From the sequence record DRR723986_6929: a stretch of 23,305 nucleotides of DNA. One strand, written 5' to 3'. Positions 3,500 through 23,305 of this stretch are shown here, piece after piece (position 1 is the stretch's first letter; every line of letters starts with the position of its first letter). The translations under genes and the position numbers were made by a program. The notes beneath the pieces were generated by a model, which saw only the letters and a list, made by a program, of their open reading frames with translations, had not been told where the DNA came from and made no database searches.

Positions 3500-4919
3500 C
3501 GGTTTGCGCCTTAACAAAATCTTTTGCAGTGGCGGCCCGGTCAGCCTTAAAAAGCGCTGCTTGCGCAGAGATTGCATGTTGTTGCTGAACGGTAACCTGA
3601 TAGGCTTCAAAAGCGCCGCGCCGCGCGACAACCAGATCCTCGCGCAGTCTGTCAAGCTTCGCACGCGCAGCCCCGTAAATCGCCAAATTGCAGGTGGTCT
3701 CACCGCCGGTTGCCGATCTGATACCCGGTGTCGCCGCATCAGAAGCCGCCTTGGAAATCAGGAAATCAATGTTGGTCAGTAGATCATCAAACACTCGGTA
3801 GGCAAGCGAGGATGCGATCGGAAACTCGTAGGCGCCCACGGCCTGATCAAGGGAACCATTAAGAACACCGTTTCTGACAATTTCCCAAACAGGCTGCGCC
3901 GACTGGTTGATAAAATTAACCTCATCGGCGGTGAAAGCGCGTTTGCTTTTGACCCCCGCACCAATATCCAGCATGTTCTGCCGCACCATGGAAATAACCG
4001 ACACAGCTGTTGCCCGGCTACAGGGGCCGCCGCTTGCTGGCCTGCCCTCAACCTCGCCTGTCAGAAAATCATAGGATGAGAAACGATCAACGCGCGGACA
4101 ACGATCAATGCTTCGGATGGTGGGGGCGTTCTCGCTTGAAGGCCAACTGATGAGGATGTCGCCGATGTATGCCCGGACGATCGGTGCCATATCAAGCATA
4201 CCAACACGCTCAGCAGCGTGATCAATCACTGACCCGTCAGCAAACAACTCTCTGACGGCAGCAGGACATGCTGCCACCTCGCCGTGCAGATCAACAGGCA
4301 CCTGGTTATCATTGTCGCGGATCGATTGCTGCGCGCCGTGATAATGTTTCTCGACCGCTTCTTCCAGGCTTCTCGAACCTGTTGCCTCCTCGAGCACGTT
4401 CGAGATAAAATCGGGATTATCGCCCGTTACAAGCTTGGCTACCTGATTGGCCATCCTGCAATCATTGACCTGGATCGAATTCAGAAACGATGAGGTGGCC
4501 TCCAGTTTGCTCATCACGTCTTCGCATGTTTCGCAGTGCGCTTTAAGCGCCATTGAAAAGGCAAGCGCCGGTGCGGCTTGTAAAATATTTTCAAACTTTT
4601 CCACAAGATACTCAGGGTCTAAAAAACTTAGACCGCCCGCAAACAAATCAATACCGCCGCAGCCTGCCCGCACGCGCGGCGGAGAGACAGAAAAGGGATT
4701 GTCTGTCGCGAGCCTGAACCGGCCATTGAACTGACCACCCTGAATATAGCCGCGGCGCTGACCCGAGAAGGACGAAGGCCCGCTATGGGTCATGGAATCG
4801 AACCAATCCTTGGTCCAATCCTGGCCAGTGGCGGACAGGCTGAAGGAGCCCAAATAGACTAAAATACTGAGGCACACAGGCGCCTTTAAAAAAGATCGTT
4901 TCATCGGTCGCTCCTTCAT
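3492..4919 (-). CDS. traH: Conjugal transfer pilus assembly protein TraH
   Basis: Signal peptide and TraH hallmark PPRVRAGCGGIDLFAGGLSF, plus ALAFSMAL...CETC and DC. traF-traH-traG synteny. Confidence 0.95.
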   Translation of the reverse strand: MKERPMKRSFLKAPVCLSILVYLGSFSLSATGQDWTKDWFDSMTHSGPSSFSGQRRGYIQGGQFNGRFRLATDNPFSVSPPRVRAGCGGIDLFAGGLSFLDPEYLVEKFENILQAAPALAFSMALKAHCETCEDVMSKLEATSSFLNSIQVNDCRMANQVAKLVTGDNPDFISNVLEEATGSRSLEEAVEKHYHGAQQSIRDNDNQVPVDLHGEVAACPAAVRELFADGSVIDHAAERVGMLDMAPIVRAYIGDILISWPSSENAPTIRSIDRCPRVDRFSSYDFLTGEVEGRPASGGPCSRATAVSVISMVRQNMLDIGAGVKSKRAFTADEVNFINQSAQPVWEIVRNGVLNGSLDQAVGAYEFPIASSLAYRVFDDLLTNIDFLISKAASDAATPGIRSATGGETTCNLAIYGAARAKLDRLREDLVVARRGAFEAYQVTVQQQHAISAQAALFKADRAATAKDFVKAQTDG

Positions 4920-5776
4920 TGCTTGTTCAGGTCAAGGTGGTTTTCAAAAGCGGCGCTGCGGGTATCGAAAAAACCGCCGTCATCACTCTCGCTGTTCAGG
5001 AACTGCTGGACAATGATTTCGCCCTTCAGGACGCGGATCGCACGGTAAGCGTTATCGCTCACTTCGGGCAAACTGACCGCACCTGCCGATACCGGAAACC
5101 ACTCACGGCTGTTCTTCCGGATCAAGATGGTCATCGGCGTACCGGTCACGTTGAACCGGGCTGCGCGTTCGGGGTACTCTGCAACATCCACTTTGGTAAC
5201 GTTCCAGCCGGTGCGGTCCTGAAAGGCCTGCAATACGCCCCACTGAACACCGCAAAACCCGCACCCTTGAGAAGAAAACATCACCAGAGCAAACTCGCCG
5301 CGCTCCGCCTGAAGACGGATATCTTTTTCCGCCTTGCGTTCGCGGCTCCGTATTGTCCTGCCCGCGTTTGTGATGGGATAGCTTGTGCGGGCATTCAGGG
5401 CCGGGTTTTTGAGCAGTGCAACACTCGTGAGCGCGGTGAAGGTGCGCGACCGGCGGCGGACAAAATCGAGGAGGGTGAAATACTCGGCGACCTCGCCGAC
5501 CTCTTCGCTGACAATGGCAAAGGAGAGCTGCGCCTCCATCAACTCACCGACCGCTTTTGGCGTCATTTTTGTGAGGATCTCAAAAGATGGCAGCTCGGGC
5601 TCATAGGCAAAATCGGGATTAATCTCCTCAACTTCCTTTGGTGGGTCCTGGTACCAATTCCACCCGCGCTTCTCACTGGGTTCCTGCCCAAATACGCTGG
5701 AGACCACGCACAAAAAAAGCGTGAAAGTAACGACCATCAGGTTGACGGTCCGTTTTACCCAAGAACGCGCGCTCAT
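4916..5776 (-). CDS. traF: Conjugal transfer protein TraF (thioredoxin-like fold)
   Basis: Signal peptide, GWNWYQDP motif, CGFC and GTP (cis-Pro) motifs. ATGA overlaps with both neighbours. Confidence 0.92.
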   Translation of the reverse strand: MSARSWVKRTVNLMVVTFTLFLCVVSSVFGQEPSEKRGWNWYQDPPKEVEEINPDFAYEPELPSFEILTKMTPKAVGELMEAQLSFAIVSEEVGEVAEYFTLLDFVRRRSRTFTALTSVALLKNPALNARTSYPITNAGRTIRSRERKAEKDIRLQAERGEFALVMFSSQGCGFCGVQWGVLQAFQDRTGWNVTKVDVAEYPERAARFNVTGTPMTILIRKNSREWFPVSAGAVSLPEVSDNAYRAIRVLKGEIIVQQFLNSESDDGGFFDTRSAAFENHLDLNKQ

Positions 5777-6276: not shown

Positions 6277-7046
6277 CGGACCTCTCCTGTGTTTTGAAGG
6301 GTTTTCAGCAGCGGGCGCGCCCGGCGGTCGCCGAGCGCGATGAGGGCTTGAAAATGGCCCGAAAGATGCGCGTCGCCGTATGTAACGAAACTGCCGAGCG
6401 CTGCTGCCGCTTCCTCGTCCGGTCGCTCGCAGTAAGCCGCAAAGGGATCGCGGTCAACGGTGGTTACAGCCGGGACACGCTCGACGCCGTTTGCCCTGAA
6501 CATCAGCGGATCGATGATGACGCCGATATCATATATGTCACAGTCCTGGCCTTTACATTCAGGGTCCTTGAGAATGATTTTATGGGCCAGTTCAACAATC
6601 GGCTGAATTTTGGCAAGACCACCCGGTATGCCTCTGAACACCATAACACCGTTTGATTTCTCAAGCTGGGCCGCGTATGCTCGAAGCACCCCAAGGGGTA
6701 CCGACTGCGAGGCGAAGAGGATTGCTCGAAAAGAACCTTCGGACCTTTCACTTGAAAAGTTAGTTTCTTTTTCCCTTCCCGCCTCGCTGCCGGTAACAGC
6801 GAGGGCTCCCCGAACTCGAGAGCCCATTTGTTTGGTTAGGTCCACCATGCCTTTTTCGCGGAACGCCTCGGCAACCGCTTTGGCGCGCTTTTCAATCTCC
6901 TCAGATGTTTCCTGAATTTCAGTTGGAGGCGTGTCTTCGTTCTCGCTTTGGCCGTACAGCGTGCTCGCCGCTCCCAACCAGAAAATGAGCGAGCCGACAA
7001 CAATCCGGCTAGCCAGCCGAAAGCTAATATTTCCACCTCTCCTCAT
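6273..7046 (-). CDS. trbC: Type-F conjugative pilin assembly protein TrbC
   Basis: Signal peptide; FASQSVP, VFRGIPGG and IDPLMFRANGVERVP motifs typical of TrbC_Ftype. Confidence 0.88.
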   Translation of the reverse strand: MRRGGNISFRLASRIVVGSLIFWLGAASTLYGQSENEDTPPTEIQETSEEIEKRAKAVAEAFREKGMVDLTKQMGSRVRGALAVTGSEAGREKETNFSSERSEGSFRAILFASQSVPLGVLRAYAAQLEKSNGVMVFRGIPGGLAKIQPIVELAHKIILKDPECKGQDCDIYDIGVIIDPLMFRANGVERVPAVTTVDRDPFAAYCERPDEEAAAALGSFVTYGDAHLSGHFQALIALGDRRARPLLKTLQNTGEVR

Positions 7047-9130
7047 TGGTCTTTCCCCGCTTGAATGAAGGCGTCCAGGCCTTGCTCAAAACTGTCTTTG
7101 AGCTGCGCTTCCGAGCGCGCGGCCAATTCGTCGTAATATTCGCTGAGGTCCATGTCGGAAAAGTTGAGCGCCTGAAACTCGGCGGGCGTAAAACCGCGAC
7201 ACTCGGGCGTTTTTGGCTCGCCGAAACCATCAAAGTTTTTAAGCTGTTCGCGGCCCTGCTGGTGAATGATCCGGCCAAGTTTGGAGTTGAAACAGCAAAA
7301 GGAACGTGCCTTTTGAATGCACCCAATGAAGGGGATGCGGGCGACACAGTATGTACCGACAAAATGACACATGCCGGAGCTATCCAGGAGCGCGGTCTCA
7401 AAGTCCTGCTGATCACAGCCAAAGCCAAGCAGTTCATTAAACAACAGATACACGCCGGCCCCTATGATGGCGGGGCCGCCTGCCGCCGCCAGTGCCGCTG
7501 TACCTGCGCTCGCCGCACTTGCCGCTGTTGCGCCGCTGGCAAGAGCGCTCACAGCCGCACTGGCGCCGGAAAACACCGCAATAACCGTCGATACGGTCGC
7601 CGCAGCGCCCAACCCGCCAGCGCTATCGGTCAGTATTTCGCCGCGATTTTTACAACAATTCTTGAACAGGGTGAGCAACCCGGGGCGCTGGCAGTCCATG
7701 CCCCGTCCGGTGAAAACCTGCACATCGTTGAGGCATTCGCCGCTCGCATCAATTGTACCGTCGTTGACGTAAGCCACACGCTCCCGCTGCAACTCTTCGA
7801 TAGGCGCGTCGGTTGTGTTAACACATAGTGTATCAGAACACTTACTGACGCCGTCGCCCCCCAGGAAGCATTCATCAACGCCTTCCAACGGGCAAGAGTC
7901 CGGCAGCGGTTCATCGCGGCACTGGCCCGCCACAGTGATTTGCACGCACTCTCCCGGCACCACACGCTGCGAGCATTCGCCCAGCACCCGCTCATCGCGG
8001 CAATCGCCGGGAACAACTTCGCTGCGGCAAGCACCAGGAACGGTGACGTCCCGGCACACTGGCGGCGGATTAATTGTTCTACAGTCGCCGGGCACGGTAA
8101 CCGTGCGGCATGCCCCGGGTGTCACGGTATCTTCGCAAGTCCCTGGCACCTCAACGTTTCGGCACCGGCCCCGCTCAGTAACTTGGCGACACTCACCTTG
8201 CACCGTCACAGTGCGGCACGCACCGGGTACGGTCACATTTTGACAGGCCCCTGGAACCCGAACGTCGCGGCAACTCCCCGGGGTCGTAATATTCCTGCAA
8301 GTGCCGGGTACTGTGACATTGCGGCATGCCCCCGGCACACTGATGGTGCGACAAGCGCCCGGGACAATCTCTGTGGTACATTCGGTGCATGCTCGCGTAT
8401 TTCTGCTGGTGCAGCCTGGTTTTCGCACGGTGGTACAGACCCGCCGGATTGTATCTGCATCGCATACCCGGCGGTTGGTCGTCGGATCGCAAACTCTGGT
8501 GGTTGTGGAGGGGTCGCAGATACGCGTTGTTGTTGCGGGATCGCATTCGCGGCGTGTTGTATCGGGGGCGCACTGGCGCTTTGTGGTCGCGGGATCACAA
8601 ACCCGTCTTGTGGTATTTGGATCGCAAACCCTCCTGGTCCGATCAGGATCACACACCCGGTGAGTTTCCGCAGGCTCGCAAACTCTTGTTGTCGTATCGG
8701 GGTCGCACTCACGGCGAGAGCTATCAGGGTCACATTCTTCGTAAGGTTGGACCGGCGTGCATTCCCGGCGCGATGTATCAGGCTCACAGATACGGCGCGC
8801 CGTATCAGGGTCGCAGCGGCGAACAACTGTATCGGGTTCACATTCATTGATGACCTCGTCAGGTGTGCAGCTGGTCTGCGTCTTATCCGCGTCGCAGACC
8901 TGGTGCACACGGTTTGTGACACATTCAGTGGCGCTCAGCGGACATACGCCGTTATCGCAGTCCGCGATTTCTCCCTCGCCGTCATAGTCACCGTCGCCGT
9001 TGCGGTCGATGCCGCAAAAGGTACGTCCCTGCAATGCTGTCAGGTCCTGGCCGCTGCTCGGGCTAAAGACGGCAACAGCACTCAATAGGAATATGGCTAC
9101 TGCAAGGCTTGTCGAGTGCCGCTGGTACAT
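7043..9130 (-). CDS. traN: TraN C-terminal part (TraN2) with large Cys-periodic repeat insertion
   Basis: TraN C-terminal signature (FTGRGMDC...NCC...GC...GMCHFVGTYC...SFCCFNSKLGRIIHQQGREQL...PECRGFTPAEFQALNFSDMDLSEY). ATG at 9130 has an AGGA RBS and its own signal peptide (MYQRHSTSLAVAIFLLSAVAVFSPSSG). 695 aa. Confidence 0.92.
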   Translation of the reverse strand: MYQRHSTSLAVAIFLLSAVAVFSPSSGQDLTALQGRTFCGIDRNGDGDYDGEGEIADCDNGVCPLSATECVTNRVHQVCDADKTQTSCTPDEVINECEPDTVVRRCDPDTARRICEPDTSRRECTPVQPYEECDPDSSRRECDPDTTTRVCEPAETHRVCDPDRTRRVCDPNTTRRVCDPATTKRQCAPDTTRRECDPATTTRICDPSTTTRVCDPTTNRRVCDADTIRRVCTTVRKPGCTSRNTRACTECTTEIVPGACRTISVPGACRNVTVPGTCRNITTPGSCRDVRVPGACQNVTVPGACRTVTVQGECRQVTERGRCRNVEVPGTCEDTVTPGACRTVTVPGDCRTINPPPVCRDVTVPGACRSEVVPGDCRDERVLGECSQRVVPGECVQITVAGQCRDEPLPDSCPLEGVDECFLGGDGVSKCSDTLCVNTTDAPIEELQRERVAYVNDGTIDASGECLNDVQVFTGRGMDCQRPGLLTLFKNCCKNRGEILTDSAGGLGAAATVSTVIAVFSGASAAVSALASGATAASAASAGTAALAAAGGPAIIGAGVYLLFNELLGFGCDQQDFETALLDSSGMCHFVGTYCVARIPFIGCIQKARSFCCFNSKLGRIIHQQGREQLKNFDGFGEPKTPECRGFTPAEFQALNFSDMDLSEYYDELAARSEAQLKDSFEQGLDAFIQAGKDQ
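7892..8380 (-). repeat. Intragenic 27-bp/9-aa tandem repeat, return arm (C-R-x-V-T-V-P-G-A; 19 Cys, 18 intervals)
   Basis: A Cys codon every 27 nt from 8380 to 7894, read from the translation. Confidence 0.95.
8435..8923 (-). repeat. Intragenic 27-bp/9-aa tandem repeat, outbound arm (C-D-P-x-T-T-R-R-V; 19 Cys, 18 intervals)
   Basis: A Cys codon every 27 nt from 8923 to 8437, read from the translation. Confidence 0.95.
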
Positions 9131-11079
9131 GTCAGGTCCTGTCCCGCTAACCGAAAGGTTTGCATGATCGTGACCGCGTCGTTGAATTCGGTTAGACAAC
9201 CACAGTCGTTCACGATGGTTTCGCCCGGACCAACCGGGCAGACATTCCCTGCACAAGAATGATAAGTATATTTTTTTGTCGTTGGACTTTTCAGGAGCGC
9301 GCCTGCGACGCCGCTCGATGACACTTCAGTGTCGGTTTCATCGATGCTGACTTCGCATATTTTTTCGCAAGCTTCGATGCCGTATTCAGCATCAAAACTA
9401 TAGCTATCGGTATAATTCTGCAGCGTTCCATCGTTGCCAGGCCTCAGATCAGAAAACTGGTCTATGCCGGAATTTGAATAAATATGGGCCGAGCGAGCGA
9501 AATCAAAGCCGCGCGCGCCAGCACTGGACGCCTCACACTCATATGTGCGGTCACGCTGATACCAATCACGGCTGAAGGTTTGTGTGCATTTGGCACCGTA
9601 AAGTGTGCGGGTTTGCGCGATTGGCGTCAGGCCGGTACGGCCTCCCTTTAACCAGGTACGCACACCGTCAACAGTTTCATCCACCAACCTGCACTCTTCG
9701 TTGGAAGCATGAGAGGCACATGTATTGTCGAGTGTTTCCACCAGTTCGCAGCCGGGCCGGTAGCGTATGCGGCCACGGATTTGGCCGCTACCCCGCTTTT
9801 GAACGGCTATTTTGAGTAGCATTCGGTTGGTGCCGTCCCGGAGCGCGTGCCGGAAGCTTCGATTAATCTGAGTTGTTTCCTGATCGTCAATCTGACATTT
9901 GCTCGGGTCTGACACGCCGTTAAAGCCACCAGTTGAAAAAATCGCAGTGCCGTTCAGGCTGATATGGATTTGGTCTTCATAGGTTGCTGAGGTAAGCACA
10001 GCCTCGCTAATTCGCTCCACTTCGCCGACACTCCAGATAATCTCGCGTGTGAATATATTGCAGCCTTTTTTGACCAAATGGTTATCGGTGTCATCACCGA
10101 GCGCAAATTCGAAACAATCGGGATCGCCAGCGCAAGCACCTTCACCGTAGTCGGTTGACGCGGTCACACGGTTGATAATGTCTGCCGGCAAAACCTCCTC
10201 AAGCGTCACTTGCCGTTCAATTTGACAGTCATTCCGGGTTAGTAGGACACCCTCACCCGAAGGTATGTTTGAGACGAGCCCAAAGATAGTATCGCTGGAA
10301 CTTGCAGCGAACGCATCACTTGAAAGGCGCGCGGGTGTTTCGAAATACTCGTGCTGCGCTGCATCCAGTTCCGGCGCGCAGGCGCTGGCATCCTGGCCTG
10401 CAAGCTTGATGATAAAATCCTCCCGGCTCACCGTACTAACCGCATAGCGCGGATCACGTTCCATCAAGGCTCCCGCCATGCCTCCAGCCAAATCGTCAAG
10501 GATGGTTGACCGGTTGGAGAAAGCCAGATTGCCGCCGCAGCTATCATTGACGCAGTAACATCCGGCCAACTCGGCAAGACCAACCTCAATGAGACCAAGT
10601 CGCGTGCTTGCATCCGCTGACCAGCGATAGGAGGCACAGTTATCAAATGTGCCCGCATTGCAAGTGATGATGCCGTTGGCGCACACGCCTGCGACCGGGT
10701 TATCGAAGGCCACATTCCAGTCATAGCGACCATCAAAGTTGGTGTCCTGCTGGACGCTGATCGGTGATAAATCACCGCCGCTGCCAATACCGTAAAATAG
10801 CTCAAGATAACTGTTGGACGCCGGACAGGACAGCCGTTGATTGAAACTGGTTTTGCCGTCAAGCGTGGTAAAGCGACTGCCACTGGTCAGCGGGGCGGTA
10901 AAGTTCCGCTCAAAAGCTTGCTTGTCGCCGAACCGTGCTTTGATTGCATCATAGTTTTGCTGTGCTGCATCCTTTTGAGCATCACTTTCCTGTGCAGATA
11001 AAGTATGGGCAGACAAAATACCGGCACAAACAAAGACCAGTCCAAAGGCCAATGCAAAAGCCGGCGCTACTGCGGGCAT
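9097..11079 (-). CDS. Secreted Cys-rich protein, probable TraN N-terminal part (TraN1)
   Basis: Signal peptide and 25 Cys in the mature region. Occupies the traN position between traU and the TraN C-terminal gene. ATG at 11079 is 1 bp after the traU stop; GTG at 11094 is an alternative. Confidence 0.75.
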   Translation of the reverse strand: MPAVAPAFALAFGLVFVCAGILSAHTLSAQESDAQKDAAQQNYDAIKARFGDKQAFERNFTAPLTSGSRFTTLDGKTSFNQRLSCPASNSYLELFYGIGSGGDLSPISVQQDTNFDGRYDWNVAFDNPVAGVCANGIITCNAGTFDNCASYRWSADASTRLGLIEVGLAELAGCYCVNDSCGGNLAFSNRSTILDDLAGGMAGALMERDPRYAVSTVSREDFIIKLAGQDASACAPELDAAQHEYFETPARLSSDAFAASSSDTIFGLVSNIPSGEGVLLTRNDCQIERQVTLEEVLPADIINRVTASTDYGEGACAGDPDCFEFALGDDTDNHLVKKGCNIFTREIIWSVGEVERISEAVLTSATYEDQIHISLNGTAIFSTGGFNGVSDPSKCQIDDQETTQINRSFRHALRDGTNRMLLKIAVQKRGSGQIRGRIRYRPGCELVETLDNTCASHASNEECRLVDETVDGVRTWLKGGRTGLTPIAQTRTLYGAKCTQTFSRDWYQRDRTYECEASSAGARGFDFARSAHIYSNSGIDQFSDLRPGNDGTLQNYTDSYSFDAEYGIEACEKICEVSIDETDTEVSSSGVAGALLKSPTTKKYTYHSCAGNVCPVGPGETIVNDCGCLTEFNDAVTIMQTFRLAGQDLTCTSGTRQALQ

Positions 11080-11080
11080 G

Positions 11081-12058
11081 TTACGGGGTGACACAGCAAA
11101 ATACCTTTTCAAAAATCTGCCAAGCGTAATTATCTTGGCTAGGTGGATGTTTGAGACTGCTCCACAAGAGACCAGTGCGCCCAATGTTCACGCAGCTTGA
11201 TTGTTTGACCGGGCGCATTTCCTGCATTTTATAGAGCGACTTGGTCCAGATCGGCGCTAAGCGCTCGCCGCAGCCATTCCTCATGCTTTCGCGGGCAAGC
11301 CCGAGCCTTCCTGCGGTAAATATCTGTTTGGCGGCGATGGCGGCATTTGCTTCCACATGATCAGCGCTCGAAGACCGCCCGCCGAGCGGATAGGTCAGGC
11401 CCCACCCGCCCATGCACCAAAAGAGAGCATCAATAGTGCCGCCAGTGTGGCTAACCCCGGCATCTGCAACGCAGGCCAATAGTGCGGCAGGATTGCCGAA
11501 CAAAACCGCTTCAGGATTAATAATTGAGCCAAGCACTTCGTTTTGATAGGTGGGCAACACTTCGGAGATTAGCGCCACGTCGAAACCGCGCGTCTCCAAA
11601 CATGGGATATCCTGAAATAGTCCCAGCATCGCCCATACGGGCGCGATATAAACATGGGTCTGCGCGAAGGTGGTTCCCTGCCGGTGCGTGTTTCGTGTGC
11701 TCCCATGCAACCGGCCATTTTCTGCCAAAATATCAACGCCGAGCGGCATCATACACCCGGGATTTTCCACTGTATCGATCCAGCGATTGGGAGCCCAAAA
11801 ATTAACCCGAATGCCGGGCAGCGGGATGCCAAACGAGCTGGGGCAAAAGCATATGGGCGAGCGCGGATTATCAGCATCCAGCGGCGATTTGGACCCAATG
11901 CTTATACCCGCGATTTGAACCGGGAAAATACACGGCCAGTGCACGCTGGTGAGTGGGTTGATAAAACCCTGATCGCACGGCGACGCTGTTGCCGGTTTTG
12001 GTGCTGACACCGCACCCACAAAAGTCAGAAAACCAATGATGAGAAGCTTTCTAATCAT
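11081..12058 (-). CDS. traU: Conjugal transfer protein TraU
   Basis: FINPLTSVHWPCIFP, PICFCP, FWAP...VENPGC, ACVAD, LFWCMGGWG..YPLGG and terminal CC. GGAGG RBS before ATG 12058. Confidence 0.95.
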   Translation of the reverse strand: MIRKLLIIGFLTFVGAVSAPKPATASPCDQGFINPLTSVHWPCIFPVQIAGISIGSKSPLDADNPRSPICFCPSSFGIPLPGIRVNFWAPNRWIDTVENPGCMMPLGVDILAENGRLHGSTRNTHRQGTTFAQTHVYIAPVWAMLGLFQDIPCLETRGFDVALISEVLPTYQNEVLGSIINPEAVLFGNPAALLACVADAGVSHTGGTIDALFWCMGGWGLTYPLGGRSSSADHVEANAAIAAKQIFTAGRLGLARESMRNGCGERLAPIWTKSLYKMQEMRPVKQSSCVNIGRTGLLWSSLKHPPSQDNYAWQIFEKVFCCVTP

Positions 12059-18783: not shown

Positions 18784-19146
18784 TTAGATTAAAAAACCAA
18801 CAGTGGTGACGATATCTTCGCCCGCAACCATTGCCGTTGTGCCAGCAAAACCGCCGCCCATGGCCCACCAGTTACGGTTGGCAATGCCGAAGATGCCGAA
18901 GACGACGCTTGCGACCGCGATCATTGCACCAATGGGGCCTTCAATGCCGTCGTTAACGATGATGTCATATATCTCGAACGCGAGATCACCGGATGTGGGC
19001 GCAGTGAAAGCGAGCACCGGCGCCGATGCCACTACCAACAGCGCTATCAGCGCAGTACGGTCCAGGGTTTTGAGAACGGTGCCACCTACGCGGATATTAT
19101 CCGGCTCCGACACCTCGGGGTGAAACAGATTGCTCCATAAATTCAT
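18784..19146 (-). CDS. traA: Conjugative pilin precursor TraA (TrhA-like)
   Basis: Long leader ending VLA, then a ~74-aa mature part with GPIG and two hydrophobic helices. Directly upstream of traL. Confidence 0.8.
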   Translation of the reverse strand: MNLWSNLFHPEVSEPDNIRVGGTVLKTLDRTALIALLVVASAPVLAFTAPTSGDLAFEIYDIIVNDGIEGPIGAMIAVASVVFGIFGIANRNWWAMGGGFAGTTAMVAGEDIVTTVGFLI

Positions 19147-19964
19147 TGGTCGTCTCCTGTTGGGGTTTCTTGAGAGCTTGCAGCAAGGAGATATTCACGG
19201 ATTTTCACCTCGTCGAAGCCTCGGATGCGTTCGCCGTCCGCGAACAGGGTTGGGGTGGAAGAAACGCCCGCCGCTTGCGTAATCTGGATATGCTGTTGCA
19301 CACGGGCATTGCCGTCGTCGCAGTGTAGCAGTTGCCCTGGGGTCTTGCGGCTATACACATCCGCAAAGGCACGTTCAGGATCGTCGGAGCACAAAATATG
19401 CTCGGCCAGATCCTGTGATTGGCGCGAATGGCCGACGGCAAAAATGATCTGGCGACGCACAGCAAGTGCGCGCCCTTCATTGTCGAACCAGCCATGCAGA
19501 CGCTGGCACCAGCCACAGAGAGGATTGGAATATTCGGTGAGCAGCGGCGCGTCTTCCGGGCCGAACTCGAGCGCGACGCTCAAATCCAAATCCTGGAGCC
19601 GTTCAGCGGCCGCCGCAGCGACGGCGACTTGTGACAGGTTCTCGCCGCGATCATTATACATTTCGCCGAAGATCAATACGCTGGCGTCCGGCGAATAATA
19701 GACGATATTGCCGCCAGTATCGATTTCATAGAGGCCGCCAACAGCGGACGGTTTGATCGAATAGAACTGAAAATTTGAGAAGCTCGACTTGAGCAGCTGT
19801 TCGGCCTGGGCTTGTATATGGTCCATGCCAGGATTGATCTTCTGCTCGGTCTTCTGGGCGGTGCTTTGGACCGTGTTTTCGTCTTCAGCCCACAACGGGA
19901 GGCCGCAAGCGCTCAGTATCAACGCGGCAGCAGCGCCCGATTTTACTATTCGGTGGATAATCAT
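19143..19964 (-). CDS. dsbC: DsbC-family thiol:disulfide isomerase
   Basis: Signal peptide, DsbC N-terminal dimerisation region (PSAVGGLYEI...IVY...LIFGEMY), NPLCGWC active site, GVSSTPTL cis-Pro loop. Confidence 0.9.
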   Translation of the reverse strand: MIIHRIVKSGAAAALILSACGLPLWAEDENTVQSTAQKTEQKINPGMDHIQAQAEQLLKSSFSNFQFYSIKPSAVGGLYEIDTGGNIVYYSPDASVLIFGEMYNDRGENLSQVAVAAAAAERLQDLDLSVALEFGPEDAPLLTEYSNPLCGWCQRLHGWFDNEGRALAVRRQIIFAVGHSRQSQDLAEHILCSDDPERAFADVYSRKTPGQLLHCDDGNARVQQHIQITQAAGVSSTPTLFADGERIRGFDEVKIREYLLAASSQETPTGDDQ

Positions 19965-20148
19965 AGGTCAGTCTCCAATGGCGATCGCACGCAACGATCA
20001 AACGCCGCACGGCGGCAATGAACACCGTTTGGGAGAAAAATTTTTAAGCCGGTGGCTTTTGAAGCGAGGACAAAATCACATGACCGCTTCCCCCGTCAGG
20101 TCGCACCATTAGGGTTCCGCTGAATTTCAAAATTTCAAAGGAAAAACG

Positions 20149-20178
20149 ATTAAGAGGCTGGCATGCCACCCTCTTAAT
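20149..20178. promoter_or_regulatory. 30-bp near-perfect palindrome upstream of the tra operon
   Basis: ATTAAGAGG-C-TGGCATGCCA-C-CCTCTTAAT, one C/C mismatch, flanked by A- and T-tracts. Function (operator, terminator or oriT) is unresolved. Confidence 0.6.
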
Positions 20179-20394
20179 TTTTTTCGTGGCCAATCCTACA
20201 CTATTGAATTCACGCTATTTTTTACAGCTGCTTCGCATTGAATTCACGGCAAAATTATTTTGTTTTATGCATTAATTATGCATATTTTTTTCAACCACTT
20301 AAAACTGATCGCATGAATCAAAGAGTCTCGCCCTATGTTGAGCGCCGCAAACAAAATTCAATAAATGTGCCATTCATTTTAGCGAAAAATATGG

Positions 20395-20422
20395 TTGAAT
20401 TTAATACAACTCTGGGTATAAT
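20395..20422 (+). promoter_or_regulatory. Putative sigma70 promoter for the Xre regulator
   Basis: TTGAAT (20395-20400), 16-bp spacer, TATAAT (20417-20422), ~140 bp upstream of ATG 20564. Confidence 0.5.
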
Positions 20423-20563
20423 AAATGGACCTTATGGGGACTCGGGTAAAAATAGACAAAGGATGCTTGTCGGTTTTTCACCTGACCAATAGGAACTAAT
20501 TCTGCCAGTGTCGAAGCGGGGCAATGCTATAGGTCTTTCGCACGACTAAGGTGGGGACGGGAC

Positions 20564-20821
20564 ATGGAACCTTCTTTTTGCATCGCTATCAAAACCATGC
20601 GGGAGCGTAAAGGCTTGCTCCAGAAATATGTAGGCTGGACATCAGGCCTTGGGCCCGTGCGCTACAACCAAATCGAAAACGGCAAGCCGCCAACAGATGA
20701 AGAACTTGCCGAAATTGCCCGTGCGATGGACACTGATCCTCCGTCAATGGCTATATTTTGGGGCGAATTGATGCGCGAAAACGCAGGAAGCAATTCCAAG
20801 TCTAATCGGTTGGTATCTTGA
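20564..20821 (+). CDS. Xre/Cro-CI family HTH transcriptional regulator
   Basis: IKTMRERKGLLQ...SGLGPVRYNQIENGKPPTDEELAEIARAM fits the HTH_3 pattern. Divergent from the tra operon. Confidence 0.85.
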   Translation: MEPSFCIAIKTMRERKGLLQKYVGWTSGLGPVRYNQIENGKPPTDEELAEIARAMDTDPPSMAIFWGELMRENAGSNSKSNRLVS

Positions 20822-21167
20822 AATCGATTGACCAATCTGATCGTTCATAAACAACGATAATCTGATCATCGCTGTCGGTCATGCGCACACCGCGAAGCGC
20901 CAAGGCGCTTTCTACTTTCTTCAAATACATTTCACAGGTTGCTATATCCAGATCACAATAGGTATCGAGAATTTTTGAAAGATGGCCTTGCGACACATCA
21001 ATTTCTCTCGCAATGTCCGACATGCGCAGATCGAGCGATTTGATTGCCCCCTTGAGTACCCGTCCTTTTTGGGCACACTGAAGCCTCAAATAAGGGTTAT
21101 CCGCCATTTTTTGCCGGCGCGGTACGCCCGCAGTGCCGGTTTCAGTATGGTGCTTGGAATTGCCCAT
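20802..21167 (-). CDS. HTH domain DNA-binding protein
   Basis: LKGAIKSLDLRMSDIAREIDVSQGHLSKIL is an Xre-like HTH. G-rich RBS before ATG 21167; alternative start at MADNP. Confidence 0.75.
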   Translation of the reverse strand: MGNSKHHTETGTAGVPRRQKMADNPYLRLQCAQKGRVLKGAIKSLDLRMSDIAREIDVSQGHLSKILDTYCDLDIATCEMYLKKVESALALRGVRMTDSDDQIIVVYERSDWSIDFKIPTD

Positions 21168-21483
21168 AGACCCCCCACCTAATAGCCACTGACGCTATTC
21201 CTATTGTCCGCAACAATGTGCCCATGGTTTTTGCCGCGATGACCAGACCCAATCCCCACCTGATAAAATACACCAGCTGGTTTGGAGGATCAAATCCAAT
21301 TTGAAGATGGGCGAGACCAATCCGTTGTAAGCCGTTTTAGAGATTATCTTTTTTCGGTTTCAATCGGCTTTTCAGAACAGAGGCAAATTGAAACTCAACC
21401 AGCCCTATTGTCAATTTACATTTTTTATGGCTTAATAATAAGGCTCGAAAAGAATAGTTGGACCTTCCGCAGAAGGACAACAG

Positions 21484-21906
21484 TTGAGCGCTCACAACAT
21501 TAAACGACCTCCTAACTGGACCCGCCCGGCACGTCTTTCAGGCGAGGACCAGACCTGCGAAGACTTGGATCGTGCTCTTAGGATTGCAGCCGAAATCACT
21601 TGTGATTACGGCGACAGATTTCTCGGGTTTTTCCAGATGATTGAGCGACGGCATGCAGCCCACATTGCAAAATCTATTGAACAACAAAAAGCGCGCAATC
21701 TGGCAGCCAATATCGCTAGTCGTCGCCGGGCAAATCCTGCGAAAGCATTAGCTTCCGCATCCAGCGCTGTTTCACCTTCAACGAAGGTCCAGCGCCGTAC
21801 TTTGGTCGCCCAAGCGCATGGCCAAACAACTCAACCTGCATTCGTTCAGGCGTCTCGACTTCATTCAGCCGGTCCTGAAATCCGTGACGAAGGCTATAAA
21901 GAGTAG
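21484..21906 (+). CDS. Hypothetical protein convergent with, and overlapping, the integrase
   Basis: TTG start with AGGA RBS. The first ~77 aa lie outside the integrase and look helical (EDLDRALRIAAEI...GDRFLGFFQMIERR). The last 191 bp overlap int antisense. Confidence 0.55.
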   Translation: MSAHNIKRPPNWTRPARLSGEDQTCEDLDRALRIAAEITCDYGDRFLGFFQMIERRHAAHIAKSIEQQKARNLAANIASRRRANPAKALASASSAVSPSTKVQRRTLVAQAHGQTTQPAFVQASRLHSAGPEIRDEGYKE

Positions 21907-23044
21907 CACCAGGAACAAGTATTTTATTTTCCCTGAAAAACTTGCCAATGGCGTTCACACAGCTGACGTGCCTTTCCACGTATCGTGGAAACCCGTCCGG
22001 AAATTTCTGAAAAGCCTTCAAAGCCGATCCAACCAGCGGAATATCGCGTCTGCTAACTTTGGTTTTCAACATGCCGAATTTGTTTTCCCGTATCTTGAAA
22101 TGTGGCACGTCCGCGTCCAGCACAATATCATTTGGCGCACGGGTGATGACCTCAACGGGCCGAGCACCGGTTTCAGCACATATATAAACGATATGGCGCG
22201 CCTCCTCATTGAGACCTGCAAGAGGGTTATTGTTATAAAGGCAGTGCAAAATCTCTTTCTTGGTCATTGATACCCGTTCTTCGCTATAGCCTTTCTGTAG
22301 TCTCAATCCGCCTGAAAACGGGCTTTTAAGATTAATACCCTGAACATCGAATACCTTTTGGATAATGCCGCTTAATAGCTCCATGTCCTTGTTGGCGGTA
22401 TCGGCTTTCACTTCATCCGCTTCGACCAGGTCCAACCACCAGTTACGATATTCAATCGCATCCGGCCGGGTTATTTGATAAATATCCTTATCGCCGATCA
22501 CCTTGATAAACTTGCGTACGCATCGCTTGCGCGCATGGGTCCAGATTCTTGTCTGGGAATCATTTTTCCCCCTGATTTTGTCTCGTGTGTTTTCCCAATA
22601 AATTTCGAGCGCTTCCGACAAGGGCAATTCAGGTTTCTCAACAGTGCCGAGCAAGGCTTCGGCTGCTTCGGCCTTTTGTATCGGGTCGTTGATTTCATCA
22701 ACAACATCCAATCGCTCCACCAGTTCGCTTATAGGAGCGACATCCAACTCGGGTAGAGTTTTATAGTCGAATCCAAACTGCCGGGCATTGGCGATGGCGG
22801 CTTCAAACCGGTTCCGCGCCACCGGATCGCGCCCAGTTCTGCGGAATTTTGCCCATGTTTCTTCTACTGCGTCGTTGATGTTATCGCGGCGATGGAGTGC
22901 TTGCAGTAAATTACTGGTGTCCAGCGACTGTTGAATGAAAGGACGGCCGCCATATAAAGACAATAGATCCTTGGGAACCCGCCGATAATAATAGGCATGT
23001 CCTTTAATCCATTTCAGATATTTGTCTTTGCAGTTAACACCCAT
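21716..23044 (-). CDS. int: Tyrosine recombinase/integrase with DUF6538-like N-terminal domain
   Basis: N-terminal YYYRRVPKDL...SLDT. Catalytic set TGARP.E, LKT, YSLRH (Tyr at the usual His of HxxR), FGH, PKYG. GGAGG RBS. Adjacent to a tRNA. Confidence 0.93.
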   Translation of the reverse strand: MGVNCKDKYLKWIKGHAYYYRRVPKDLLSLYGGRPFIQQSLDTSNLLQALHRRDNINDAVEETWAKFRRTGRDPVARNRFEAAIANARQFGFDYKTLPELDVAPISELVERLDVVDEINDPIQKAEAAEALLGTVEKPELPLSEALEIYWENTRDKIRGKNDSQTRIWTHARKRCVRKFIKVIGDKDIYQITRPDAIEYRNWWLDLVEADEVKADTANKDMELLSGIIQKVFDVQGINLKSPFSGGLRLQKGYSEERVSMTKKEILHCLYNNNPLAGLNEEARHIVYICAETGARPVEVITRAPNDIVLDADVPHFKIRENKFGMLKTKVSRRDIPLVGSALKAFQKFPDGFPRYVERHVSCVNAIGKFFRENKILVPGATLYSLRHGFQDRLNEVETPERMQVELFGHALGRPKYGAGPSLKVKQRWMRKLMLSQDLPGDD

Positions 23045-23081
23045 TTTTTAATCCCTCCATTTGGCGACAATTGGAAGCGAT

Positions 23082-23126
23082 GTAATAAAAAAAGTAATAA
23101 AATTTGTAATAAAAATTGTAATAAAA
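23082..23126 (+). repeat. Four direct repeats GTAATAAAA at exact 12-bp period (putative integrase arm-type sites)
   Basis: Copies start at 23082, 23094, 23106 and 23118, between the int start codon and the tRNA 3' end. Confidence 0.8.
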
Positions 23127-23138
23127 ATCAAGGGTTTA
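23126..23138 (+). promoter_or_regulatory. IHF-consensus site in att region
   Basis: AATCAAGGGTTTA matches WATCAANNNNTTR exactly. A second, inverted one-mismatch site lies at 23189-23201. Confidence 0.55.
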
Positions 23139-23238
23139 CAGTGATTCGAGCCTGCGTATTGAGCGTCTATATTGCAGGTATCTCATTGTATTTACTTGAT
23201 TTTTTGGCTGAAATTGCCGTCGTCAGTTCCGAGGGAAC

Positions 23239-23305
23239 TGGCTGGGGCGGCAGGATTCGAACCTGCGAATGCCGATACCAAAAACCGGTGCCTTACCACT
23301 TGGCG
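23239..23305 (-). tRNA. tRNA-Gln(UUG), 5' end cut by window edge; putative integration site
   Basis: Reverse complement reads ...CGCCAAGTGGTAAGGCA-CCGGT-TTTTGGT-ATCGG-CATTC-GCAGG-TTCGAAT-CCTGG-CGCCCCA-G-CCA. Anticodon TTG at 23279-23281; CCA is encoded. Confidence 0.95.

Follow-up and report, generated by a model that had tools for sequence, protein, structure and literature searches.

A TraN with a predicted fold-back stalk built from two repeat arrays that change length together

The excursion of an F-type TraN from a marine, Kordiimonas-type element probably folds back as a disulfide-runged beta-hairpin stalk whose length has changed over evolution, a reading to which we assign a probability of roughly 0.8. 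The corresponding region of the 23,305-nt stretch of DNA analyzed here (the window) would encode the variable 'tip' excursion of TraN. In the proposed arrangement, an outbound array of repeat units would leave the TraN base, a basic 19-residue loop with four cysteines would form the tip, and a return array would run back antiparallel, each outbound unit lying opposite one return unit to make a rung. Six residues of an outbound unit (TTRRVC) would form a beta-ladder with CRNVTV of the facing return unit, and DPD opposite PGx would introduce a kink. The ladder would be closed by nested disulfides, Cys(112+9k)-Cys(455-9k) for k = 0 to 18 in ORF numbering, together with C282-C290 in the tip; these putative bonds are suggested by the spacing of the cysteines and by their even counts. 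Such a stalk would hold a receptor-binding tip off the donor surface, and its length would have changed repeatedly, to between 8 and 19 rungs among relatives.

The traN gene, its neighbors and its product

The gene and two neighbors that bear on its interpretation are as follows.

7043..9130, minus strand: traN, an open reading frame of 695 codons plus stop
9097..11184, minus strand: conserved gene immediately upstream of traN, overlapping the traN start; 695 residues, 27 cysteines
19143..19964, minus strand: gene for a DsbC-like disulfide isomerase in the same operon, with Pfam DsbC_N (9.9e-15) and a thioredoxin-like domain

The traN product contains the Pfam domain F_T4SS_TraN (PF06986; 71 bits against a cut-off of 23, E = 1.5e-19), with the best stretch covering profile positions 161-240. 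Its 57 cysteines in 695 residues compare with the criterion of at least about 20 for TraN that appears in the consulted portion of PMC9246713. The gene sits in a complete F-type transfer operon, in which TraG_N, TraH, TraF, TrbC, TraU, TraC, TraV, TrbI/TraB, TraK and TraE are encoded on the same strand with scores above Pfam cut-offs. TraL and TraW, also on this strand, score under the Pfam cut-off (TraL, 21.2 bits versus 24.4) and the NCBIfam cut-off (TraW, 64.8 versus 174.75), and an S26 peptidase is also found among the neighbors. None of the NCBIfam TraN equivalogs (TIGR02750, NF009009-NF009019, NF011458/9) gives a full-length score above its curated cut-off, the top score being 100.2 bits against 605 and that of TIGR02750 being 81.6 against 422.45, and most of these matches are restricted to the C-terminal part. 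Across Pfam and NCBIfam, TraN is the sole family whose cut-off this protein reaches. The gene is a TraN by domain and context that lies outside the named equivalog groups.

Translation probably starts with the ATG at 9128-9130. Although the frame stays open as far as a TTG at 9254-9256 (full ORF 7043-9256, minus strand, 737 codons), this extension is probably not translated, since every homologue starts at the methionine equivalent to the ATG.

The DsbC-like product, which also matches the NCBIfam DsbC model at 3.3e-14 (under that model's cut-off), is likely to act as a folding helper for cysteine-rich Tra proteins. For the F plasmid, the excerpted text of PMC11315126 describes TrbB as a disulfide isomerase and names TraN (22 cysteines) as a putative client. 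The product of 9097..11184 belongs to no Pfam or NCBIfam family. By language-model features it falls near clusters labeled TraN, and BLAST detects no similarity to a long-type TraN (best E 0.067). This gene was considered as a partner in setting stalk length and rejected: it spans 684-763 codons in eight loci with 10-19 rungs, with no relation between the two, and the part aligned by tblastn is 679-700 residues across eight loci.

From N to C terminus, the TraN protein comprises a short N-terminal piece, 18 outbound units, the 19-residue tip, 18 return units and the TraN core. The features below are all on the minus strand, the arms and tip being delimited by cysteine spacing.

9047..9130, minus strand: predicted signal peptide MYQRHSTSLAVAIFLLSAVAVFSPSSGQ..., a hydrophobic N-terminus with an approximate cleavage site
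8924..9046, minus strand: N-terminal base piece with the Asp/Gly-rich motif CGIDRNGDGDYDGEGEIADCDNGVCP and three cysteines
8438..8923, minus strand: outbound arm, 18 units of 9 residues (27 nt), cysteine first, consensus CDPDTTRRV
8735..8761, minus strand: outbound rung 7, CTPVQPYEE, the most aberrant outbound unit
8627..8653, minus strand: outbound rung 11, CDPDRTRRV, near consensus
8381..8437, minus strand: tip, CTTVRKPG CTSRNTRA CTE, 19 residues, basic, cysteine spacings 8/8/3
7895..8380, minus strand: return arm, 18 units of 9 residues, cysteine first, consensus CRNVTVPGx
8165..8191, minus strand: return rung 11 from the base, CRQVTERGR
8057..8083, minus strand: return rung 7 from the base, CRTINPPPV, which deviates most in its arm
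7046..7894, minus strand: ladder-closing cysteine (CPLEGVDE...) and the conserved C-terminal TraN core, where the Pfam and NCBIfam TraN matches fall

The N-terminus is probably a signal peptide, and the full-length AF2 model places a helix at residues 2-21. The base piece is nearly invariant in 11 aligned proteins, and its Asp/Gly-rich motif might conceivably bind calcium. At the DNA level, direct-repeat families spaced 27 nt apart occur in the outbound arm between 8451 and 8842. One of the four tip cysteines closes rung 18. The excursion of stalk plus tip amounts to 343 residues with 40 cysteines, as compared with an N-terminal base of only about 40 residues, and the core includes a long hydrophobic stretch rich in Ala and Gly.

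Mirrored arms in the window and in homologues

A previous sequence-only reading of the window had proposed that irregular units occupy mirror positions in the two arms, and its observations are partly confirmed. Translation and cysteine spacing place TPVQPYEE (8735-8758, minus strand) as outbound unit 7 of 18 and RTINPPPV (8057-8080, minus strand) as return unit 12 of 18, which is the seventh from the base, exactly as that reading had them. These rung 7 units are indeed the worst in both arms, scoring 0.3 and 2.9 bits against a family profile where the others score 8-26, and they are again the lowest of 18 in each arm with a profile built from the protein itself. In this one sequence, the chance that the worst units coincide is about 1/14 to 1/18. 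Unit scores are correlated between the arms at rho = 0.43 (p = 0.076), with no clear advantage over shifted registers. Because of these values, the register evidence in the window taken by itself is suggestive and not significant.

Other details of the earlier proposal fared less evenly. At rung 11, DPDRTRRV is indeed opposite RQVTERGR, but the former is not aberrant, being near consensus at 26.0 bits. Their charges, said to be complementary, are in fact net +1 and +2; the sole complementary facing pair is the arginine at outbound position 4 with the glutamate at return position 5. Nor does charge complementarity apply as a general rule, as the net charges of facing units show no anticorrelation across 223 rung pairs (r = +0.10). 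Divergence of basal units is evident for rungs 1-3 in both arms, but the units matching best do not adjoin the turn as had been suggested; they are found at outbound rungs 9-12 and at return rungs 6, 8 and 16.

Much stronger evidence for the register comes from the comparison of 18 full-length proteins, of which 13 come from the database, 4 from loci and one from the window. The cysteine spacings of 17, read from both ends inward, are identical as far as the tip module, including rungs of 6 or 8 residues that appear at mirrored positions. Both arms of P0010 consist of eight 9-residue units, five 8-residue units, one 6-residue unit and two 9-residue units, the lone 6-residue rung of P0008 occurs at position 12 in either arm, and P0014 and P0015 have a 6-residue rung at position 5 in either arm. 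What the 6-residue rungs lack is exactly DPD on the outbound side and PGx on the return side. The antiparallel register proposed earlier is borne out by these mirrored vectors, and also by the mutual information described below.

The expectation that the arms expand in step is likewise upheld, as rung numbers range from 8 to 19 among homologues and are matched between arms, with a single exception. P0005 has 15 outbound and 14 return units, the sole single-arm indel, which reflects either a real or an artefactual deletion in one arm. Elsewhere, P0003 has 15/15 units, P0004 has 16/16, and P0002 has 18/18 where its relative L081 has 19/19. The number of cysteines between the anchors is even in 16 of the 18 proteins and odd in P0003 (35) and P0005 (33). 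In six proteins with big tips, the position adjoining the tip is 8 residues long in the outbound arm and 9 in the return arm, and strict counts of 9-residue units are off by one (13/14, 10/11); we read this 8-versus-9 mismatch as belonging to the tip module.

The arrays also retain traces of how they grew. Near-identical neighboring units occur at equal rung numbers in both arms of P0002 (rungs 11-16), P0007 (5/6-10) and P0010 (9-12). The two arrays of L081 contain 7.3 and 7.1 copies of a 27-nt repeat (81% and 78% matches), and each has an 81-nt higher-order repeat of 2.5 copies. Growth near the tip, as previously suggested, is therefore roughly right, but the duplicated tracts are mid-to-distal and lie under one to three conserved capping rungs. 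Since a rung needs a partner of equal length, a change in one array by slippage or unequal recombination would persist only if the other array changed to match, and growth would consequently be favored in the homogeneous tracts of the middle and distal parts, which can re-pair easily. The idea that stalk length is tunable holds over evolution, in which it has varied from 8 to 19 rungs, but not in the sense of rapid switching, since three relatives about 93% identical in nucleotide sequence all have 18/18 units. Thus, for the antiparallel register, the in-step expansion and the site of growth, the earlier interpretation is supported by the homologous sequences.

Residue covariation points to the same register. 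For 212 rung pairs in 16 proteins, the summed mutual information between the arms is 13.07 bits above that of shuffles at shift 0, compared with 6.98 bits at shift -1, 4.94 bits at shift +1 and less beyond; the rung pairs are phylogenetically related, such that z-scores are not probabilities and the shifted registers are the only control. Particular pairings recur as well. Outbound units of the QPP/QPD type face return units of the PQPD type (VPD in P0012) in all ten occurrences, from nine proteins, and in L002 the TY units at rungs 7 and 10 are opposite RGGD units at rungs 7 and 10. Of ten rungs with a return tryptophan at position 2, nine have an outbound arginine or glutamine at position 5; the remaining one, in P0005, fits when this protein is counted from the tip. 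Within individual proteins, the similarity matrices of the two arms are correlated at p < 0.05 in 15 of 18 cases, and in L081, L002, P0004, P0005 and P0008 the matrices are correlated at least as strongly at shift -1 as at shift 0.

Structure of the stalk and competing interpretations

The nine distal rungs and the tip were modeled with AF2 at a mean pLDDT of 88.1, the underlying alignment comprising only six sequences. The nine strand pairs of this model follow i+j=183 within one residue, and strands 77-86 and 96-106 flank a 9-residue tip loop. The full-length AF2 model is poor (pLDDT 45.9, pTM 0.20) and was used for secondary structure only. With the mirrored cysteines, the mutual information and these predicted strands taken together, the stalk is modeled as two in-register antiparallel strands.

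Foldseek returned no matches at E<=0.001 for either the full-length model or the half-stalk model, the best for the latter being 2.9e-3. A VIA-align search of the half-stalk model against 48,161 chains gave five with Z>=2 (best Z 3.4), and none reached Z>=5. The weak structural neighbors are all long two-stranded hairpins, namely the pore stems of aerolysin, lysenin and anthrax PA, a phi29 tail hairpin and the arms of HU. From these neighbors and the secondary structure of the models, we infer an extended two-stranded geometry of roughly 2-3 nm per rung, which would give tens of nanometers for 18 rungs and may serve to extend the reach of the tip.

Other interpretations of the arrays are less probable. 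The repeats themselves might be the adhesive surface, an Arg/Thr/Asp-rich ribbon that would bind recipient surface polymers along its length, with the number of rungs tuning avidity and not reach. The units are highly polar and charged, their surface residues differ among relatives, and the short tip offers little binding surface, all of which favor this unlikely alternative. Against it, the same stalk units bear two different tip types in these relatives, and the specificity of the TraN proteins studied so far maps to the tip, with tip swaps reversing specificity (PMC13104618, in the sections consulted) and the tip hairpin entering the OmpK36 pore (PMC9246713, likewise in part).

The short predicted strands raise a different issue, as both AF2 models show 6-residue strands split by three residues outside any strand, often Pro, Gly or Asp, and PG and DPD are classic turn formers. 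Each arm might accordingly be a beta-meander sheet of six-residue strands with DPD/PG turns, the two sheets lying face to face and joined by inter-sheet disulfides. Such a structure would be compact (about 0.5 nm per rung, or roughly 9 nm for 18 rungs) and would still need the mirror register and the matched indels. We consider it distinctly improbable. Turn residues are missing from the 6-residue rungs of either arm, as are Pro and Gly from the 8-residue rungs in P0010; a meander could not reverse at these positions, whereas a two-stranded ladder would simply continue. The strand phases of the arms are also mirror-related (i+j=183), with the tip set between strands of 10 and 11 residues, the structural neighbors are exclusively long two-stranded hairpins, and the units appear too polar for the core of a sandwich.

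The arms might also pair between molecules, in a swapped dimer or a higher-order bundle, or a thicker rod might form from several hairpins. A swapped dimer would obey the same register constraints, and a lone two-stranded ribbon of tens of nanometers would be unusually thin. These arrangements are rated lower still, given a monomer model that is confident by itself and a 19-residue tip with two nested cysteine pairs that suits a tight intramolecular turn. Finally, the possibility that the return array arose from the outbound one, by inversion or otherwise, and that their numbers match by descent or gene conversion, was considered because an inverted duplication would yield mirror order, and it was rejected as scarcely credible: no inverted or direct repeat joins the arms at seed 8, their local alignments score 11 (direct) and 12 (reverse-complemented) against codon-shuffle means of 12.0 and 11.8 (172 and 103 of 200 shuffles reach the observed scores), the consensus units are unrelated, and rung-specific pairings occur at differing rung numbers between proteins.

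Known systems, distribution and significance

TraN is a donor outer-membrane protein that stabilizes mating pairs. With the 'short' TraN proteins of F-like plasmids (pKpQIL, R100-1, F), the stalk-bearing protein shares the C-terminal TraN domain, the F-type operon, cysteine richness and a variable excursion that divides the base into an N-terminal and a C-terminal part. In the part of PMC9246713 used here, the pKpQIL tip is described as ending in a beta-hairpin with a cysteine on either side that enters the recipient porin. Whereas the tips of the 'short' proteins are compact beta-sandwich domains, the excursion here has 343 residues, two repeat arrays and 40 cysteines. The larger classes, which are the medium, long and V-shaped TraN proteins of IncA/C, IncH and Acinetobacter plasmids, offer another comparison. 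According to the consulted sections of PMC13104618, TraN length classes are distinguished by how many distal tip domains they have and how large these are, and a tip can be moved from one base to another. Three relatives of 905-948 residues carry the stalk-plus-tip module at positions 224-454 (P0012) and 228-414 (P0014 and P0015), near the tip of RA1 TraN at 230-360 as given in those sections, in which neither repeat arrays nor the words 'stalk', 'disulfide', 'cysteine' or 'hairpin' appear. The literature that we covered on TraN tips, cystine ladders, cysteine-rich or repeat-containing TraN and TrbB describes no repeat-built TraN stalk; supplements may list variants.

Cystine-ladder beta-hairpins are familiar from theta-defensins, tachyplesin and gomesin, peptides of 17-18 residues, some of them cyclic, in which antiparallel strands are cross-braced by two or three parallel disulfide rungs at every other residue. 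The TraN stalk, by contrast, would have up to about 20 rungs spaced nine residues apart in a 695-residue protein, and there is no homology. Pairing of distant stretches with indels compensated in the partner is known for the antiparallel coiled coils of SMC and Rad50 and for RNA hairpin stems. Unlike RNA stems or those alpha-helical proteins, TraN would pair two different tandem beta-repeat arrays, with a putative covalent rung per unit. Rods of tandem repeats project a binding domain in SasG/Aap and trimeric autotransporter stalks, where repeat number sets reach, and Myxococcus TraA has a stalk of cysteine-rich repeats. These are single-pass structures of one unit type, in contrast to a two-pass TraN stalk with two unit types that change together. 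It is possible, at somewhat worse than even odds, that the latter represents an undescribed architecture, a two-stranded beta-ribbon of tens of nanometers with some twenty nested disulfides that acts as a length-adjustable adhesin tether. In such an architecture, two unrelated 27-nt arrays may evolve in the manner of an RNA stem, through compensatory indels and rung-specific pairings. That the ribbon might be thin enough to follow the tip hairpin into a porin channel is pure speculation.

The stalk family is small, comprising Kordiimonas, Eilatimonas and a few metagenome contigs. A representative library search yielded 2768 proteins that match TraN at E<=0.001; the best-matching query stretch is the C-terminal core in all but 3 of the best 150, and no new stalk-bearing protein is present among those 150. 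A profile search added only P0163, an annotated fragment of 324 residues, and a degenerate motif scan recovered three Kordiimonas contigs only, all already in the set. A tblastn search with the stalk against 72,556 plasmids revealed no comparable module, giving only matches of 22-39% identity that reflect repeat composition in unrelated hosts, and no relatives of the long-type proteins were found in the species-representative genomes scanned.

Sequence comparison and structure prediction underlie what we propose for the significance of the stalk. For protein evolution, it would be an unusually clean case of two different tandem arrays in one gene forced to co-vary in copy number, a constraint that appears readable from sequence alone through mirrored odd-length rungs and rung-specific residue pairs. 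The repeat unit could also provide protein engineering with a simple programmable rod. TraN tips decide which recipients are engaged, and earlier work has dealt with compact tips on enterobacterial and Acinetobacter plasmids. A TraN with a long stalk suggests that distance, in addition to receptor identity, may be selectable in the formation of mating pairs. If this is correct, a length-adjustable tether would allow a conjugation adhesin to cross surface layers and reach its receptor on the recipient.

The traN gene and its surroundings

The stalk lies in an open reading frame on the minus strand, and because all homologues begin at a methionine matching codon 43 of this frame, traN most likely spans 7043-9130 and encodes 695 residues. 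The protein has 57 cysteines and a signal-peptide-like N-terminus; Pfam F_T4SS_TraN matches its last 280 residues at 71 bits (cut-off 23), and NCBIfam TraN models match the same part with scores far under their full-length cut-offs. The surrounding F-type transfer operon is complete and on a single strand throughout (TraG, TraH, TraF, S26 peptidase, TrbC, TraN, a 695-residue unknown, TraU, TraW, TraC, TraV, TraB/TrbI, TraK, TraE, TraL and a DsbC-like disulfide isomerase, with an integrase-like gene further on). The kind of protein is thus already known, being TraN by domain and context. Splitting it at its cysteines gave the following anatomy, with residues numbered by the 737-codon frame.

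7043-9256, minus strand: frame with the stalk, 737 codons counted from TTG
Residues 112-273: outbound arm, 18 units of exactly nine residues, consensus CDPDTTRRV
Residues 274-292: tip, cysteine spacings 8, 8 and 3
Residues 293-454: return arm, 18 nine-residue units, consensus CRNVTVPGx
After the return arm: TraN core, first residues CPLEGVDE

An outbound unit and the return unit facing it form a rung, numbered from the base upward; the arms and tip together form the module. Within each arm the 27-nt units have a mean pairwise identity of ~0.50 (maxima 0.78 and 0.74), and they are old at the DNA level. Because of this low identity, Tandem Repeats Finder reported neither array of the window gene; a repeat finder returned families with 27-nt spacing in the outbound arm only. 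Several long open frames of up to 382 codons cross the repeats on both strands (7940-9088, plus strand, among them) and were rejected as genes, being by-products of GC-rich periodic sequence. In the N-terminal base piece (8924-9046, minus strand) an Asp/Gly-rich motif, DRNGDGDYDGEGE, hardly varies among the aligned proteins and resembles a calcium-binding loop.

Among named relatives, Kordiimonas aquimaris JCM 16665 is nearest, with 92.5% nucleotide identity across the gene. Its public TraN record (P0163) is just 324 residues long and shares 96% identity with the C-terminal part of the window protein, whereas its locus (L001:3001-5088) contains an intact 695-codon frame that spans the entire stalk; the start given in the deposited record seems to fall within the gene, leaving out the repeats.

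4916-5776, same operon as the DsbC-like gene: TraF, thioredoxin-fold
9097-11184, minus strand: 695-residue, 27-cysteine gene directly upstream of traN, overlapping its start
19143-19964, minus strand: DsbC-like disulfide isomerase of the transfer operon, DsbC_N plus thioredoxin-like domain
21716-23044, minus strand: integrase-like gene, DUF6538 plus integrase N-terminal domain

The gene at 9097-11184 matches no Pfam or NCBIfam family and is kept in eight of eight related loci at 48-94% identity. Its language-model features adjoin clusters labelled TraN (score 0.96 with low recognition, a lead only), and it may be a second TraN-like partner or an N-terminal part split off TraN; its length stays constant across the related loci, and it does not behave as the other dimension to which a putative 'ruler' stalk would be matched, for which it was the one candidate examined. 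The DsbC-like isomerase and thioredoxin-fold TraF fit the heavy disulfide load of TraN and this neighbour. GC falls to 0.44-0.50 ahead of the integrase-like gene (region 20000-23305), and a 12-nt AT-rich repeat occurs in four copies at 23081-23128; the transfer genes are probably part of an integrative conjugative element with one end near this region.

Matching of the two arms

The sequence-only reading had placed the most irregular units of the arms at mirror positions, and its coordinates and peptides hold: TPVQPYEE is outbound unit 7, and RTINPPPV is return unit 12, the seventh from the base and so opposite. Scored on a profile built from every unit of the family, they rank last in their arms (0.3 and 2.9 bits, the others 8-26). 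DPDRTRRV does face RQVTERGR, at rung 11, but the supposedly complementary charges are both net positive, and DPDRTRRV is near consensus. Basal units are indeed more diverged, rungs 1-3 most so in either arm, whereas the best consensus matches, claimed for the turn, sit elsewhere. In this one protein the coincidence at rung 7 would arise by chance roughly once in 14-18 cases, and unit scores of the two arms correlate with rho 0.43 (p=0.076), a value not clearly above those of shifted registers. The mirrored irregularity is real, but weak taken alone.

Relatives provide a broader comparison. Fourteen database proteins, one a fragment, bear the module, and it also occurs at loci of Kordiimonas, Eilatimonas and metagenome origin. 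Several of these loci encode proteins already in the database set, which leaves 18 distinct full-length proteins, the window's included, among which the window protein, L001 and L082 are near-identical. When cysteine-to-cysteine spacings were read inward from both module ends, the arms were identical as far as the tip module in 17 of the 18, in line with the proposal that homologues would show matched nine-residue indels; only P0005 is unmatched.

Rung numbers in module-bearing proteins
19: L081
18: window group and P0002
16: P0004 and L002
15: P0003
8-16: proteins with a larger tip module of 6-7 cysteines

The agreement extends to units of other lengths. Either arm of P0010 reads 8x9, 5x8, 1x6, 2x9; the sole 6-residue rung of P0008 stands at position 12 of 16, and that of P0014 and P0015 at position 5 of 8, outbound and return alike. 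Such rungs are without exactly DPD in the outbound unit and PGx in the return unit. In six big-tip proteins the boundary to the tip has an 8-residue outbound unit opposing a return unit of nine, so that strict 9-residue counts differ by one between arms; this pair is constant within that tip type and was assigned to the tip. The exception, P0005, has 15 units outbound, 14 on the return side and 33 cysteines, an odd number; set against the related P0003, it is missing the return unit that would face outbound rung 5. Its source is one metagenome contig, and either a natural intermediate or a collapse of the 27-nt repeat during assembly could explain it.

The tip of P0003 (L003:3001-4926) has an extra cysteine, CHGCNKRTC versus CHGRNKRTC in its relative P0004, which gives an odd count of 35 between anchors. 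In P0012, P0014 and P0015 (905-948 residues) the stalk-plus-big-tip module sits on another, longer TraN scaffold, whose TraN domain is full-length. This suggests transfer of the module from one TraN base to another; species-representative genomes yielded no relatives of these three.

Facing units also covary. Special outbound QPP/QPD units face special return PQPD units (VPD in P0012) in all ten occurrences, across nine proteins and at rungs 7 to 14, and SxGYY-type units stand opposite NVW/F-type units. In nine of the ten rungs with a return Trp at position 2, position 5 of the outbound unit is Arg or Gln; the tenth rung, in P0005, agrees once that protein is counted from the tip. The 212 nine-residue rung pairs of 16 proteins were pooled, the near-duplicates L001 and L082 being left out, and summed inter-arm mutual information exceeded shuffles by 13.07 bits in the mirror register; the excess was 6.98 bits at shift -1 and 4.94 at shift +1, and lower still beyond. 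Because rung pairs are phylogenetically related, this shift series rather than z-scores is the meaningful control. The strongest position pairs lay around the anti-diagonal p+q=9. Unit-similarity matrices of the two arms were correlated within proteins at p<0.05 in 15 of 18 (exceptions P0004, 0.13; P0005, 0.16; P0012, 0.064), with shift -1 equal in quality to shift 0 in five.

Predicted fold of the stalk

The model of the full-length protein is poor (pLDDT 45.9) but gives every unit a strand of six residues and three residues outside it, and its rung-7 strand breaks are mirrored (126-129 opposite 354-357, 695-residue numbering). The distal nine rungs and tip, modelled from a six-sequence alignment, reached a mean pLDDT of 88.1 (71.6-88.1 over five models). 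All nine strand pairs satisfy i+j=183 to within one residue, and TTRRVC would therefore oppose CRNVTV, and DPD oppose PGx; the tip is a loop bounded by strands of 10 and 11 residues (77-86 with 96-106). Foldseek and VIA-align gave no significant structural match for the stalk. An extended two-stranded ribbon is favoured over a two-sheet meander, since all weak neighbours are very long two-stranded hairpins (the pore stems of aerolysin, lysenin and anthrax protective antigen, a phi29 tail hairpin and HU arms) and the 6- and 8-residue rungs are turn-less.

Growth in step and proposed working

Sister lineages on the conserved-core tree differ in rung number (18 and 19; 16, 16 and 15), so this number has changed several times, always in both arms. 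Change is slow: the 18/19-rung pair has 78% core identity, and three relatives at ~93% nucleotide identity are all 18/18. That the arrays expand in step is borne out by units with a near-identical neighbour, which fall on the same rungs in both arms; the window protein has none.

Rungs with near-identical neighbours (outbound; return)
P0002: 11-16; 11-16
L081: 12-18; 11-18
P0007: 5-10; 6-10
P0008: 8-9; 8-9
P0010: 9-12; 9-12

In the L081 DNA one array has 7.3 copies of the 27-nt unit and the other 7.1 (81% and 78% matches, respectively), and both show a longer, higher-order period of 81 nt with 2.5 copies. Both arms of L002 repeat a block of three rungs, and unusual TY units at rungs 7 and 10 stand opposite unusual RGGD units at the same rungs. 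Growth had been placed near the tip; the zones are indeed middle to distal, yet lie beneath one to three conserved cap rungs, and above four or five conserved basal ones. Inverted duplication of DNA as the source of the mirror order was rejected: whether compared directly or as reverse complement, the arms are no more alike than codon shuffles.

Copy number might change by slippage or unequal exchange in one array or the other. An unmatched change would leave a nine-residue bulge and a free cysteine, as in P0005, and the ladder would be restored by a further change in the partner array; restoration would be easiest among alike neighbouring rungs, and young copies occur at just such places.

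Known TraN proteins combine a base with a variable distal tip that chooses the recipient's outer-membrane receptor. A cysteine-flanked hairpin of pKpQIL TraN goes into a porin (PMC9246713); tips are transplantable, and TraN size classes differ by their tips (PMC13104618). Here the tip excursion is most likely a hairpin stalk, and long-type relatives bear the module at the site listed in PMC13104618 for the RA1 TraN tip. TraN is named among putative clients of F TrbB (PMC11315126); by analogy, the operon's DsbC-like enzyme may help fold the predicted nested disulfide ladder. No repeat-built TraN stalk or lock-step evolution of two arrays was found in the literature searched, and both appear undescribed. 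The family is small and phylogenetically narrow, and the disulfides, geometry and function are all inferred. If the ribbon is extended, beta-strand geometry would give roughly 2-3 nm per rung, and the stalk may serve to extend the reach of an adhesin tip.
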